Below, in pieces: positions 1 through 42,980 of a stretch of DNA of 42,980 nt; the stretch's first letter is position 1, and the number at the start of each line of letters is the position of its first letter. Under the pieces are notes generated by a model. The model had not been told where the DNA came from. It saw only the letters and a list, made by a program, of their open reading frames with translations, and did no database searches. The DNA comes from a virus (taxonomy: Duplodnaviria; Heunggongvirae; Uroviricota; Caudoviricetes): the IMG/VR virus record IMGVR_UViG_2923355181_000001; one strand, given 5' to 3'. Position numbers and translations under genes: made by a program.

Positions 1-50
1 TCGTTTCGGCGCAATTTTCAGCAAACGATCAAAAGTGGTGAAAAATATCG

Positions 51-78
51 TTGACTCATCGCGCCAGGTAAGTAGAAT
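51..78 (+). promoter_or_regulatory. candidate sigma70 promoter of the tRNA operon
   Basis: TTGACT (51-56), 16-nt spacer, TAGAAT (73-78), GC-rich discriminator; about 70 nt upstream of tRNA-Gly. Confidence 0.45.
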
Positions 79-151
79 GCAACGCATCGAACGGCGGCAC
101 TGATTGCCAGACGATAATAAAATCAAGTGATTAACTGATTGCTTGATGAAT

Positions 152-227
152 GCGGGAATAGCTCAGTTGGTAGAGCACGACCTTGCCAAGGTCGGGGTCG
201 CGAGTTCGAGTCTCGTTTCCCGCTCCA
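152..227 (+). tRNA. glyW: tRNA-Gly (GCC)
   Basis: 76-nt sequence GCGGGAATAGCTCAGTTGGTAGAGCACGACCTTGCCAAGG...CCCGCTCCA matches the E. coli tRNA-Gly(GCC) I remember; cloverleaf with GTTCGAGTC T-loop and CCA end. Confidence 0.93.
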
Positions 228-280
228 GTTTAAAAGGCATCGGCGTCAGCGGATGTCTGGCTGAAAGGCCTGAAGAATTT

Positions 281-354
281 GGCGCGTTAACAAAGCGGTT
301 ATGTAGCGGATTGCAAATCCGTCTAGTCCGGTTCGACTCCGGAACGCGCCTCCA
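281..354 (+). tRNA. cysT: tRNA-Cys (GCA)
   Basis: GGCGCGTTAACAAAGCGGTTATGTAGCGGATTGCAAATCC...GCGCCTCCA; GCA anticodon in loop, CCA end. Confidence 0.93.
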
Positions 355-366
355 CTTTTTTCCCGA

Positions 367-453
367 GCCCGGATGGTGGAATCGGTAGACACAAGGGATT
401 TAAAATCCCTCGGCGTTCGCGCTGTGCGGGTTCAAGTCCCGCTCCGGGTACCA
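367..453 (+). tRNA. leuZ: tRNA-Leu (UAA), class II with long variable arm
   Basis: GCCCGGATGGTGGAATCGGTAGACACAAGGGATTTAAAATCCC...GGGTACCA; 87 nt, UAA anticodon; immediately precedes the prophage integrase. Confidence 0.92.
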
Positions 454-496
454 TGGGAAAGATAAGAATAAAATCAAAGCAATAAGCAGTGTCGTG

Positions 497-39372: not shown

Positions 39373-39480
39373 TTATTCTGATTCCGTTTATTGCGAAAAA
39401 ACTTGCCATCCCGCCCGATACGCAAATGGACCTGCCGTACCGGGTTTTTAATTTCTATGTAAACGAGGTCATGAAAATCG

Positions 39481-41121
39481 ATGGCTATTTCTCAAAACTT
39501 TAAAACGCAGGTTGTATTCGGTGGGCGAATAGACCCGTCGTTTCGTCGCGGTACAACAGAACTCAATGATGCGATTCGGCAGACGTCGTCTACTGTCGGG
39601 AAATTAACGAAAAGTCAGGATAAATTAAAAGACAAAATCGCAGCAATGAAACTGGCAGGTAAAGACGTTTCTGATTTATCTGCTCAGTATCAAAAGCTGG
39701 ACCGTCGAATAAAAGCGACAACGCAGGACCAGGAGGCGCTGAATACTCAACTTGCTAAAAAACAGCGGCTGGAGAAGTGGACGGGTCGCGCAAAAGGAGC
39801 TGCAAAATGGGGCGGACGAGCCGCCGCAGGTGCGGTGAGGGCTACGGGGCGGGGTATCAAATGGGGGACACTTGGCGCGGCAGGGCTCATTGGCGGTGCT
39901 GCAGCTGGTGCGCTGGCAATGAATGCAGAGACGTCAGAAAAACTCGGTCTGGCGAAGTCCTACGGCGTTGGCGTCGAAAAATACGCTGCGTGGGAAAATA
40001 TTGGTAAAGCCGCGGGCCTGAACGGCGAAAATATCGGGGATTTGTCTGAAGAACTTACAAATAAAATCGGCGAAATCGGAAACGAAAAAAGCCTGAATCC
40101 CATGTTATTTCAAATTGGCCTGACGAAAAAACGAATGGCTGGCTGGGATCGGGAAAAACAGTTTAATGAGGTTATGCGTCGCATCTCTGAAATGAAAGAT
40201 GAGAAGCAAGCGGCGAGCCTCGCTGACCAGCTCATGGGGGGCGAGGCTAATAAGATCATGACGTATATGAAGGCGACGGGTAAAAGCTGGGAACAGACAA
40301 TGTCTGACGCGCAAAAGTCGAATTTGTTAACAAAAGAGGGTGCGGAAGGGGCGGCGCGTGCGCATGTATCAGTGACAAATCTGTGGGGCTCTATTACGTC
40401 GGGACTTGCAGATACACTCGGTAAAATCGGGGGGGAACTCGCGCCGACGTTTGACTCAGTACGTGAAACATTTACATCCTGGTTTAAGGATAATCAGGGT
40501 GGTTTTGTCAGCACAATTACTGAGTGGGTAAAACCAGAAAATATGAAAAAAATGTGGGATGGCATCGTCAATTTTGGAGAAGGTTGCGTCAAATTCGGGA
40601 AGATTATATGGGCTGTCGTAAAGAAACTGGAGTGGCTTATTCCGGATGAAAAATCAGATGAAGAACAGAAAACTTATAATGACGAATATAATCGGGCATA
40701 TCAAGAGTTTATGGATTCGGGAGGTAAATATTCACCGAACGCTGGATTGACTGCTGATAATATTGCGAAGGCAAAAGCCGAAGAGGCTGTCGAAAATATG
40801 CGGCATCCAGAACGGCAAGAACAGGCAAAATCTCAGGCAGAATCAATGCTCGCGTTTGTTAATCCATTATCCGGGATGGTAAATAAAAATACCGCGCCTG
40901 CAGCACTGGATTCGTCGACGTTAAATATTGATACGTTGAAGCAGGCAGTCTCGACACCTGCGCCGGAGCAAAACAATAAAATCGAAATCAATATTGTCGG
41001 TGCGACAGATCCGCAGTCAATACAACAATCTGCAGCGTCGGGGGTGCTCGATGGACTGAGACAGGCTGCGAGTTCGTACAATCGTGGCGCGATGTTTGAT
41101 AAACCAGCTGCGGCGGGGTGA
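39481..41121 (+). CDS. tail tape measure protein
   Basis: 546 aa, Gly/Ala-rich, low-complexity helical composition; between chaperone and gpU-like gene. Confidence 0.85.
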   Translation: MAISQNFKTQVVFGGRIDPSFRRGTTELNDAIRQTSSTVGKLTKSQDKLKDKIAAMKLAGKDVSDLSAQYQKLDRRIKATTQDQEALNTQLAKKQRLEKWTGRAKGAAKWGGRAAAGAVRATGRGIKWGTLGAAGLIGGAAAGALAMNAETSEKLGLAKSYGVGVEKYAAWENIGKAAGLNGENIGDLSEELTNKIGEIGNEKSLNPMLFQIGLTKKRMAGWDREKQFNEVMRRISEMKDEKQAASLADQLMGGEANKIMTYMKATGKSWEQTMSDAQKSNLLTKEGAEGAARAHVSVTNLWGSITSGLADTLGKIGGELAPTFDSVRETFTSWFKDNQGGFVSTITEWVKPENMKKMWDGIVNFGEGCVKFGKIIWAVVKKLEWLIPDEKSDEEQKTYNDEYNRAYQEFMDSGGKYSPNAGLTADNIAKAKAEEAVENMRHPERQEQAKSQAESMLAFVNPLSGMVNKNTAPAALDSSTLNIDTLKQAVSTPAPEQNNKIEINIVGATDPQSIQQSAASGVLDGLRQAASSYNRGAMFDKPAAAG

Positions 41122-41123
41122 CA

Positions 41124-41546
41124 ATGAGTGATGCAATAAACGGTGCTGAGGATATCATGCTCGGCCTGGGTGATTTCATTTTTGCTATATCAACAGTAGC
41201 GTACAACAAACTGCAACGTAGTGACGCCTGGCGCTGGGCTCAGCAAACACGATTCGGGAAAAACGACGCGTTGCAGATAACCGGACGACCGAACCCCACA
41301 ATTACTATCGATGGAAAGATAAACGCTTTATTTCTTGACGGGTGCGGCGTCGGCCTGTTGACAGATTTGCGAGCGCTCGGGAACACGGGAGAACCCCAGC
41401 AGCTAGTGCTGGGGACCGGGGAGGTGAAAGGGTACTGGGTGCTGCGAGAACTAACTGAAACGCAAAACAGCTTTTTGATGGGCGGAACACCTAAATCGCA
41501 GGACTTTTCACTCACGCTCGAATATTATGGAGCTTCGCTAGATTAA
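41124..41546 (+). CDS. tail protein gpU-like
   Basis: MLGLGDFIFAI... resembles P2 U N-terminus; track ORF from GTG 41118. Confidence 0.7.
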   Translation: MSDAINGAEDIMLGLGDFIFAISTVAYNKLQRSDAWRWAQQTRFGKNDALQITGRPNPTITIDGKINALFLDGCGVGLLTDLRALGNTGEPQQLVLGTGEVKGYWVLRELTETQNSFLMGGTPKSQDFSLTLEYYGASLD

Positions 41547-41719
41547 TACAAAATCAAGCGCTACCAGAGCACTTAACAAGTATAAAAATAATAAAAAAAA
41601 CTACGAACATAAATGTAAAACAACCTGATGGTATTTTTTTTGACGCCGAAATACTAATACCTCTCCGACTACTAAAATTAATTCTCATTATGAAATCCTT
41701 TTAATTAATGGGGCCCCAA

Positions 41720-41932
41720 ATGATTACATACACTACACGGGACGGTGACCGTCTCGATCAGATCTGCCTTGCGGTCTACGGGAGAGCGTCAAAAACGACA
41801 GAGACTGTTTTATATCAGGTTTCGAATTACGGCGTAACGGATATGTGTGCCGTGTTTCGTGCTGGAGAAAAAATTGTTTTACCAGATATCGAACCAGAGC
41901 CGGTTAAAAAAGAAACGCAATTATGGGATTGA
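41720..41932 (+). CDS. tail protein gpX-like (LysM-like)
   Basis: MITYTTRDGDRLDQICLAVYGR...TETVLYQVSNYG...VLPDIEP...ETQLWD resembles P2 X. Confidence 0.85.
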   Translation: MITYTTRDGDRLDQICLAVYGRASKTTETVLYQVSNYGVTDMCAVFRAGEKIVLPDIEPEPVKKETQLWD

Positions 41933-41935
41933 TGA

Positions 41936-42980
41936 ATGAGTGATTACGTAAATACTGGCGTGGAGGCGTGGAAACCTAATTTTTATATATCTGCTGATAA
42001 TAAAAACATCACGGATAAAATAAGAAAAGGTTTGATCAATATCACGCTGACAGATTACGGCGGCTCCAGTAAACAGACAGACGAACTCCGCGTAGCAATA
42101 GTTTCTGAAACTCTGAAAATTCCGGCCCGCGGAGTAAAAATCAGTATTGGGCTCGGTTTCGGTAATCAGATAATTGATAAAGGGATATACATCGTTGACG
42201 GTGCTAGCAGTGGCGGTGAACCCCGGGTAGTTGATTTCACAGCAAAAGCGGCTCCGATGAACGCAGCAAAAGGATCTCCGACAGTTCAGAGCAAAAAGAC
42301 TCGTTCCTGGAGCGACGTCACTGTCAGCGATATCGTTGCGACAATAGCGAGCGATAATGGGCTAAAACCACGCGTATCAAAGCGGTTTGCAGACAATGTT
42401 ATCACGCAACTCGATCAGGTCGGCGAGTCAGATATGCACCTGATGTCGCGGCTCGCAACGAGATTCGATGCGGTGAGTAAACCCGCGGGCGGGTACTGGA
42501 TATTCCTGCCGCGCGGCGCGGGCGAATCTGTTAGCGGTGCTCCGCTCCAGCACTACACGCTAACTCGTCGTGATAACTCCAGCTGGGGCTATTCGAGAAA
42601 TGGACAAAGTGGCGATAGTGGTAGCGGTGGCGAAAATCCGGAACCGACGTATCTGATTAAATATCACGACACAGCAACTGGGCAGATCAAAGAATTGCGG
42701 ACAAGGTAGTGGCGGCGATCCTGTCATTGAATGGCCGGCAGTTGAGCCGTCGCTCGACGCAGCGAAAGAAGCTGCACCAGGGCTCAAGGGCGGTGCAGCT
42801 AAAAAAGAGTTCTCTATGACGTACACGACGCCAGCGACGCTCGATTTAGTGTCGCTGACAGCAGAATGCAAAGTCACAACTCAAGGTTTCGGGACCGAGG
42901 AGGACCGGGACTGGACTATCAACACACTGAGTCTGACGCTCGCTGAAAACGGTTTTTCGGTTCGGCTGTCTCTGGAGTAA
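41936..42980 (+). pseudogene. tail protein gpD-like, disrupted by a frameshift near 42657-42709
   Basis: Track ORF 41936-42709 ends RTR*; a second frame is open from 42657 to the TAA at 42978-42980 and encodes a plausible continuation (…GSGGDPVIEWPAVEPSLDAA...LSLTLAENGFSVRLSLE*). Confidence 0.7.

Follow-up and report, generated by a model that had tools for sequence, protein, structure and literature searches.

The window analyzed here is the whole of IMG/VR virus record IMGVR_UViG_2923355181_000001, a DNA of 42,980 nucleotides (nt). At its left end lies the Escherichia coli tRNA cluster glyW-cysT-leuZ, and rightward of the cluster everything is phage-like. We are highly confident of the following reading: the window holds a temperate myovirus prophage of about 43.4 kb, inserted in the 3′ end of leuZ in an E. 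coli chromosome of the sequence type 131 (ST131) kind; this copy of the prophage is defective; and its head and tail belong to an established lineage. The element is an already known, common prophage of ST131, and its architecture is that of a known phage lineage. The main significance of the analysis is one of annotation, in that the prophage boundaries, modules and lesions are now exact.

Host site, boundaries and distribution

The host genes are glyW (tRNA-Gly, 152–227), cysT (tRNA-Cys, 281–354) and leuZ (tRNA-Leu, taa/UAA, 367–453), all on the plus strand and all identified by ARAGORN, by Rfam tRNA matches and by the RefSeq annotation of the identical sequence. A tyrosine integrase gene (584–1600, minus strand; PF00589, PF22022; phrog_1) points at leuZ and is accompanied by a gene for a DUF4224 excisionase (1569–1832, minus strand; PF13986; phrog_1266). 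The two products are 64% and 37% identical to gp02 and gp03, respectively, of Pectobacterium phage ZF40.

A reading made earlier from the letters alone, here called the sequence-only reading, had taken the integrase to be aimed at the 3′ end of tRNA-Leu, implying an attachment core overlapping leuZ and a direct repeat of the leuZ 3′ end at the distal side. Both are present. attL (398–522) is a 125-bp repeat consisting of the last 56 nt of leuZ and 69 bp of the downstream terminator region, and the 69-bp part includes a hairpin and a T-run. The right boundary was mapped by aligning the window with strain TUM2367 (L001), whose sequence reaches further right. attR lies outside the window, 807–931 bp past its end (L001 32888–33012) and directly before the host gene yecA. 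attL and attR form a perfect direct repeat, 125 bp at 100% identity.

The empty site was reconstructed synthetically with a single repeat copy and searched in 5,426 complete E. coli genomes, the set used throughout. It was found contiguous, at 100% identity, in genomes elsewhere; one stretch covered at least 80% of it in 3,792 of the 5,426. Because the empty site is contiguous in other genomes, the junctions are exact. The integrase beside a tRNA 3′ end, the far-side repeat and the intact empty site elsewhere are those of a tRNA-integrating tyrosine-recombinase prophage. With one att copy included (first base of attL through the last base ahead of attR), it measures 43,389 bp, or 42,612 bp when the insertion sequence IS1 described below and its duplication are subtracted. 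The window covers the left junction and all of the prophage except the last ~0.9 kb. The sequence shows that the 125 bp carried at attP, a copy of the 3′ end of leuZ with its terminator, restore the tRNA gene upon integration. The same segment is annotated as attP in the lambdoid phage mEp390 and also matches phages 520873, Fostie and ZF40, so leuZ serves as an attachment site for several types of phage.

In Megablast searches of the same genomes, 394 matched the first 25 kb and 441 the last 20 kb of the window, in both cases at 100% identity with coverage of 80% or more. The label O25b:H4-ST131 is borne by many of the carriers. In EC958, the reference strain of ST131, the prophage lies at 2.043–2.086 Mb, between yecA and leuZ; apart from IS1, the window and the EC958 copy are 100% identical in nucleotide sequence, and they share the insertion site and a frameshift in tail gene D. 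Seven prophage regions, Phi1 to Phi7, have been defined in EC958 (PMC3203889, PMC4134206). By position, the leuZ prophage should be one of them, although its number could not be confirmed. A literature search for the leuZ prophage in ST131, or for "Phi5", found no specific published description.

Four partial GenBank phage records, ON470596, ON470604, ON470624 and ON470627, are 100% identical to the prophage. Such records bear the names Escherichia phage vB_EcoM-705R4, -720R5, -569R10 and -783R5. By coordinate arithmetic, ON470624 spans from the ImmA gene inside the prophage cargo to the last base of host yecA. Since it includes host yecA, the record was probably delimited by prophage prediction and does not seem to represent DNA from a virion. 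In a 2025 paper, 28 spacers from urological E. coli match ON470624, i.e., the leuZ prophage (PMC12736100). A CRISPR spacer of E. coli strain LR-46 is 100% identical to window positions 42029–42062, which are nt 94–127 of tail gene D.

Head, neck and tail genes and their lesions

The structural genes are all on the plus strand. The packaging and head module (22909–30688) is lambda-type, with PHROG matches to phrog_57, phrog_92 and phrog_82. Its genes are as follows, with tblastn identities to the lambda proteins: terL (23462–25324; 43% to lambda A over 624 amino acids (aa)), W (25324–25557; 35%), the portal gene B (25554–27128; 64% over 505 aa), the S49 protease gene C (27128–28435; 56% over 409 aa), the decoration gene D (28435–28764; 40%) and the major capsid gene E (28823–29857; 56% over 340 aa). 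They are preceded by terS (22909–23475) and followed by FI (29892–30311) and FII/Hc1 (30308–30688). FI and FII are recognized by PF14000 and PF05354, respectively, both above cut-off and both without a BLAST match to lambda. That is, gpA, gpW, gpB, gpC, gpD, gpE, FI and FII are collinear and in lambda order. The sequence-only reading had called the packaging and head proteins lambda homologs, which holds at 35–64% identity for A, W, B, C, D and E, and by Pfam for FI. None of the window's proteins matches lambda 7977–18903, the segment of the non-contractile tail genes (Z, U, V, G, T, H, M, L, K, I, J). A sheath and a tube are present in place of that tail, so the element is not a Lambdavirus or other lambda-like siphovirus.

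Two neck genes lie between FII and V, encoding a Neck1/tail-completion protein (30720–31400; phrog_27) and a collar-like protein of 178 aa (31397–31933; phrog_1072). Neither has a lambda or P2 match at E ≤ 1e-3, and they are 28–35% identical to the syntenic genes of Vibrio phage Valp1, Citrobacter phage Chris1 and Hafnia phage yong2. The 178-aa protein aligns, weakly (E 0.019) and near end to end, with the R2-pyocin collar PA0615 (6u5f). A PDB sequence search with Neck1 found no match.

The tail genes begin with V, the baseplate spike gene (31899–33593), which is interrupted and 35% identical to P2 V; PF04717 and phrog_9992 are matched by the intact 305-aa allele of L001. Then come the baseplate genes W (33596–33937; 36% to P2 W), J (33934–34854; 41% to P2 J) and I (34857–35483; 34% to P2 I), the tail fiber gene (35476–36660; N-terminus 32% to P2 H; PF12571) and a fiber-assembly-like chaperone gene (36660–37049). 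The baseplate and fiber genes are 38–54% identical to those of Chris1, yong2 and Valp1. The sheath gene (37046–38548) shares 36% identity with P2 FI; among solved structures, its product is matched best by R2-pyocin PA0622 (E 5.9e-49). The tube (38566–39078) is identified by PHROG and Pfam profiles and by homology to Chris1, yong2 and Valp1; the chaperone E (39091–39372) by PF10109 and by related phages; and the 546-aa tape measure protein (39481–41121) by PHROG profiles and by homology to related phages. The block from sheath to tape measure (37046–41121) matches phrog_55 and phrog_3654. A putative E′ is encoded by a −1-frame open reading frame (ORF; 39333–39501) that runs across the 3′ end of E into the beginning of the tape measure gene, in the manner of E/E′ in P2. 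Last are U (41124–41546; 35% to P2 U) and X (41720–41932; 40% to P2 X), with matches to phrog_76 and phrog_46, and D, the VgrG-like baseplate hub gene (41936–42980; 30% to P2 D by tblastn), here a pseudogene.

The tail order is thus V-W-J-I-fiber-chaperone-sheath-tube-E-tape measure-U-X-D, and with the collar gene in front it is the order of PA0615–PA0628. Nine of the genes match P2 directly by tblastn, while tube, E and tape measure are placed through profiles and related phages. The contractile tail in P2/R-pyocin order proposed by the sequence-only reading is therefore borne out, with P2 identities of 30–41%. X lies between U and D, as in the pyocins; in P2, it is located elsewhere. There are other departures from P2. 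The sheath, of 500 aa, has an extra domain of ~110 residues (~44–157) that is absent from P2 FI and PA0622, the alignments with which begin only at residue ~154–158. The extra domain is conserved in Chris1, yong2, Valp1, Stutzerimonas phage ZRG1 and Acidithiobacillus phage AcaML1. The tape measure protein has 546 aa, compared with 815 aa in P2, and a shorter tail is expected from its shorter length. V, when intact, has 305 aa versus 211 aa in P2. Outside the tail operons and X, no P2 matches were found: the P2 head genes (Q, P, O, N, M, L), A/B replication genes and ogr/cox are absent, and the element is not a true P2-like phage of the Peduoviridae. An R-type tailocin was also considered and rejected, as the element has complete modules for head, terminase, replication and integration.

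The predicted virion would have a lambda-type head joined, via Neck1 and the pyocin-collar-like protein, to a contractile tail of P2/R-pyocin type. The whole structural cassette, from terminase to D, is collinear with those of Valp1, ZRG1 and AcaML1, at identities of 24–60%. Because the same cassette is collinear in these phages, the head-tail joint is old and established, and not a lambda × P2 recombinant made in E. coli. On this evidence, the combination of lambda-type head and P2-type tail is an old, widely distributed, inherited structural lineage. The sequence-only reading had described a mosaic prophage, lambda-type head joined to P2/pyocin-type tail. Its two parts stand; the word mosaic is weakened by the refuting condition set for that reading, namely structural proteins that all match one phage lineage, as the order of the cassette matches single isolated phages. 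There is mosaicism on a finer scale, with the nearest relatives differing from gene to gene: terS and terL are nearest to Valp1 (45% and 60%), and portal, protease and capsid are nearest to lambda (56–64%).

This copy has two lesions. The first is an IS1 element of 768 bp (32514–33281) inside V, flanked by a 9-bp target duplication, ACTGCTGCG, at 32505–32513 and 33282–33290. Alignment to L001, with the break at 32513/33282, places the interruption after codon 205 of 305. The V::IS1 junction is found in none of the 5,426 complete E. coli genomes and is thus private to the source strain. An IS1 acquired independently lies in gene X of TUM2367 (L001 30157–30923), so that two ST131-type strains have been hit in tail genes. 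The other lesion is in D, where the ORF has 257 aa rather than 347. An extra A at ~42702–42703 leads to a stop at 42707–42709, and the C-terminal part runs in another frame to the last base of the window. Accordingly, when the D proteins of yong2, Chris1 and P2 serve as tblastn queries, their alignments to this gene fall in two frames. Relative to the intact allele of strain Z247, which encodes 347 aa annotated as VgrG/Pvc8 family, the change is a single-base indel, GGACAAGG in the window versus GGACAGG. The frameshift is present in ~31 of 37 near-identical copies from an evenly spaced sample of carriers, as well as in EC958; about one in six near-identical carriers, Z247 among them, has an intact D.

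V and D are essential tail genes in P2. The IS1 is predicted to remove the C-terminal 100 residues of V, and the +1 frameshift the C-terminal 90 of D, so this copy most likely cannot assemble tails. The sequence-only reading had listed both as tail genes; both are indeed present, with V split by IS1 and D frameshifted. Neither lesion had been noticed in it, nor had the C4/isrK RNAs upstream of the anti-repressor gene (see below). Most copies have a broken D, and individual strains have in addition an IS1 in V or X, so through most of the ST131 clone the element is probably unable to infect; intact alleles persist in a minority of strains, for example Z247.

Early region, cargo and late switch

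The leftward early operon (2042–5357, minus strand) contains a small ORF, a gene for a Gam-like/Gp157 protein (2224–2793; PF05565), a gene for a 738-aa exonuclease (2790–5006) and another small ORF (5037–5357); phrog_253 and phrog_2489 are matched in the operon. It is syntenic with ZF40 gp05–gp08, at 31–49% identity. Between the operon and the repressor gene, three ORFs in the 5357–6368 gap were scanned against PHROG and none was recognized as N-like, which is not proof of absence. The earlier statement that no N gene is apparent thus stands, as does a lambdoid, Q-dependent early/late layout. This stretch and another of ~1 kb in the AT-rich cargo (13850–15039) have no annotated or recognizable genes, and neither gave an Rfam match at the gathering threshold.

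The immunity switch comprises a cI-like repressor gene (6368–6760, minus strand; PF01381), a YdaS/Cro-like gene (6880–7110, plus strand; PF15943) and a YdaT/CII-like gene (7169–7645, plus strand; PF06254), with matches to phrog_8, phrog_35 and phrog_163 across the switch. The repressor, a helix-turn-helix (HTH) protein of 130 aa, lacks a peptidase domain by Pfam. From the gene families, lysogeny would be held by this HTH-only repressor and opposed by the YdaS/Cro-like protein. The replication module follows (7685–11282, plus strand; phrog_345, phrog_19, phrog_1105). It has a small ORF, genes for an O-like initiator (7906–8661) and a DnaB helicase (8651–10066; 67% identical to that of ZF40), and theta-like and small ORFs, and is 46–67% identical to ZF40 gp13–gp17. 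Replication would proceed via the O-like initiator and the phage's own DnaB helicase.

Downstream, on the plus strand, are three RNA features, each above the Rfam gathering score: c4-a1b1 target sites (11715–11767; RF03163, 52.9 bits), isrK (11728–11802; RF01394, 80.4 bits) and the C4 antisense RNA (11827–11912; RF01695, 75.2 bits). They are followed by the gene for an ORF6N anti-repressor (11964–12752, plus strand; PF10543; phrog_4792, anti-repressor, E 2.7e-163). C4 RNA and a1/b1 elements immediately upstream of an ant gene form the arrangement of P1/P7 immI, and this suggests a P1/P7 immI-style (or Gifsy isrK-like) control of induction. Presumably, the C4 RNA controls the anti-repressor, as it does in P1/P7 immI. 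A family of unknown function, phrog_340, is matched by 11470–11691, by 18972–19151 and by the C-terminal part of 11964–12752; the first two, both small ORFs, are paralogs that closely flank the region of anti-repressor and cargo.

The cargo block (12778–18820) has genes on both strands and is set apart by composition, at 33–45% GC. It encodes an LprI-family protein (12927–13850, minus strand; by Pfam), a homolog of Z-region ORF1 of phage P2-EC58 (15039–15737, plus strand), a 201-aa protein of unknown function (16200–16805, minus strand), an ImmA/IrrE metalloprotease (16815–17303, minus strand) and two further unknown ORFs. An AT-rich 1.7-kb segment (14280–15993), which includes the ORF1 homolog, is 86.7% identical in nucleotide sequence to the 'Z-region ORF1' moron of P2-EC58 (AJ512683), and in that record the moron is flanked by annotated inverted repeats. 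The 232-aa product of 15039–15737 has only a weak PADLOC match, to a DRT-associated transmembrane protein (E 1.8e-5). The segment may be a portable defense or lysogenic-conversion cassette common to unrelated prophages. An 81-nt direct repeat, 89% identical between its copies (12778–12858 and 16201–16281), encloses 3.4 kb of the low-GC cargo with the LprI-family gene and the ORF1 homolog. As the second copy is the 3′ end of the ORF at 16200–16805, the first looks like a remnant of insertion or recombination.

The best PADLOC match of the ImmA/IrrE metalloprotease is CapP (E 2.4e-25), a regulator of the cyclic oligonucleotide-based antiphage signaling system (CBASS); no CBASS genes are nearby. 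In its minus-strand region (16200–17935), an unknown 77-aa ORF precedes it and the 201-aa protein follows. At the other end of the element, between tail gene D and attR, a 139-aa ORF with a lipoprotein-like signal peptide (…LALVGC…) lies ~170–590 bp past the window end (L001 32248–32667), at the extreme right of the prophage, a typical moron position.

Rightward of the cargo, and on the plus strand, are two Nin-type genes, DUF1367 (19229–19825; PF07105) and YbcO/DUF1364 (19822–20115; PF07102), which are 64–66% identical to ZF40 gp23 and gp24, and the gene for antiterminator Q (20115–20786; PF06323). A terminator-like hairpin (20851–20874), located by a consensus scan, lies after Q and before the lysis genes. 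The latter encode two holins (20899–21282 and 21282–21554; phrog_198 and phrog_217) and a CHAP/TIGR02594-type endolysin (21554–22033; PF05257), all three also so named by RefSeq. Going by the gene families, Q would switch on the late genes by acting before the hairpin. The sequence-only reading had called the early region lambdoid with a Rac-like flavor. Pfam confirms the YdaS, YdaT, DUF1367 and DUF1364 assignments; 'Rac-like' is the less precise term, and ZF40-like describes the region better.

Alternative readings and comparison with known phages

Several observations weigh against our reading of the prophage as a defective member of an established lineage with a lambda-type head and a P2-type tail. 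terS has no detectable similarity to lambda Nu1 (tblastn, E ≤ 1e-3), and terS, FI and FII resemble lambda-type families at the profile level only. A search for the lambda cos 12-mer with up to two mismatches gave matches at chance level only; the lambda-type module thus shows neither a Nu1-type small terminase nor a lambda-like cos. In the tail, no canonical slippery heptamer (X XXY YYZ) was found for the expected E/E′ frameshift, and the match of the 178-aa protein to the pyocin collar is a weak one. The regulatory roles suggested for C4/Ant and for the peptidase-less HTH repressor come from family membership, and the defectiveness of this copy is deduced from the roles of V and D in P2.

Three other explanations were weighed. 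That the window copy is an intact, inducible temperate phage making infectious particles is most improbable. The att sites are perfect, integrase and excisionase are intact, the other late genes are open and 100% identical in hundreds of genomes, and the GenBank records are named as phages (vB_EcoM-…); against these stand the split V, a D that is frameshifted relative to the intact 347-aa allele, and the extension of ON470624 to the end of host yecA, which makes it look like a prophage region delimited by a program instead of DNA taken from virions. A hybrid that arose recently in Enterobacteria, between the head of a lambda-like siphovirus and the tail of a P2-like myovirus, would account for the portal, protease and capsid being nearer to lambda (56–64%) than to any myovirus examined, and for the best capsid matches among isolated phages all being lambda-like or N15-like siphoviruses. 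However, the tail is only 30–41% identical to that of P2 and is nearer to those of Chris1, yong2 and Valp1, X sits between U and D as in pyocins and unlike in P2, and the neck genes, which match neither lambda nor P2 at E ≤ 1e-3, are common in their order to Valp1, Chris1 and yong2. As phages of Vibrio, Stutzerimonas and Acidithiobacillus have the same head and tail order, we consider a recent hybrid very improbable.

The remaining alternative is that ST131 keeps the element in domesticated form, for its cargo or defense genes or for a tail-less or tailocin-like product, and that it is not a decaying phage. The D frameshift, present in ~31 of the 37 sampled carriers and in EC958 while the rest of the prophage is 100% identical, fits such a history, as does a cargo with an LprI-family gene, a P2 Z-locus moron and a CapP-like protease. 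But ST131 is a young clone, in which identity among carriers is expected by descent without selection; the independent IS1 insertions in V (window) and X (TUM2367) look like ongoing decay; and a tailocin needs D and V, precisely the genes that are broken. We judge domestication improbable. A more specific form of it is also unlikely, namely that the D-frameshift allele marks domestication, with the low-GC cargo giving an advantage in phage protection or colonization and the C4/Ant and CapP-like modules serving as switches responsive to DNA damage. The cargo in question is the P2 Z-locus moron homolog, the CapP-like ImmA protease with its 201-aa neighbor, and the LprI-family protein. We retain the reading of a defective copy of an established phage type, in which a long-standing head-neck-tail cassette is combined with a ZF40-like arm for integration, recombination and replication.

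That arm is close to ZF40 in detail. The likeness extends over integrase (64%), excisionase, the Gam-like protein, the large exonuclease, the CII/YdaT-like protein, the O-like initiator, DnaB (67%), the theta-like ORF, DUF1367 (64%) and DUF1364 (66%). The shared early genes are in the same order and at nearly the same coordinates, at 31–67% aa identity, and the ZF40 attP region matches the same tRNA-Leu 3′ end. In contrast, ZF40 has another repressor/cro pair, another Q and an entirely different structural module. ZF40 was therefore rejected as a relative of the whole phage: the early arm alone matches, and there is no match to the head and tail genes.

For the structural cassette, a close relative is found in Escherichia whittamii, with 83–99% aa identity over the shared structural genes and the same architecture. 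A scan of genome contigs with the Neck1 protein gave four loci only, the one in E. whittamii and others that are distant, too few to define a host range. Among isolated phages, Valp1 (Vb_VaM_Valp1, OR500391) has the same order of terS, terL, W, portal, protease, decoration, capsid, (FI) and Hc1, at 28–60% aa identity. In Valp1, ZRG1 and AcaML1, the order continues as in the leuZ prophage, with Neck1, collar-like protein, V, W, J, I, fiber, sheath, tube, E, tape measure, U, X and D. The three differ from it in having a PAAR gene after V and in their unrelated early regions, and the head proteins of the leuZ prophage are nearer to those of lambda than to theirs. Valp1 differs further in being a linear plasmid-prophage with protelomerase and ParAB and without an integrase.

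The Hapunavirus phages VP882 and phiHAP-1, as well as Chris1 and yong2, share the Hc1-Neck1-collar-like neck and the P2-type tail. The tail gene order of VP882 and phiHAP-1 is that of the leuZ prophage, and tail genes only are shared with these two, at 24–33% identity. Lavigne et al. 2009 (PMC2771037) had already noted that the HAP1-like viruses are homologous to P2 in the V and F tail operons only. Among isolated phages, the sheath is matched best by those of Chris1 and yong2 (46%), whose early regions are lambdoid and include Q; these two differ in placing the W-J-I-fiber block after D and not before the sheath. All four have a fused protease-capsid protein of ~600–690 aa, compared with separate C, D and E genes here. 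The leuZ prophage is thus no Hapunavirus: it has an integrase and att sites in place of protelomerase and a ParA linear plasmid, and its protease and capsid genes are separate.

To summarize the likenesses to the classical systems, lambda is matched by A, W, B, C, D and E at 35–64% and by the FI and FII families, and by none of its tail genes; P2 is matched by V, W, J, I, H (N-terminus), FI, U, X and D at 30–41%, and by none of its head, replication or ogr genes. The union of a lambda head with a P2-type tail recurs in phages of Vibrio, Stutzerimonas, Acidithiobacillus and Escherichia, and it should not be flagged as an unusual hybrid on further encounters.

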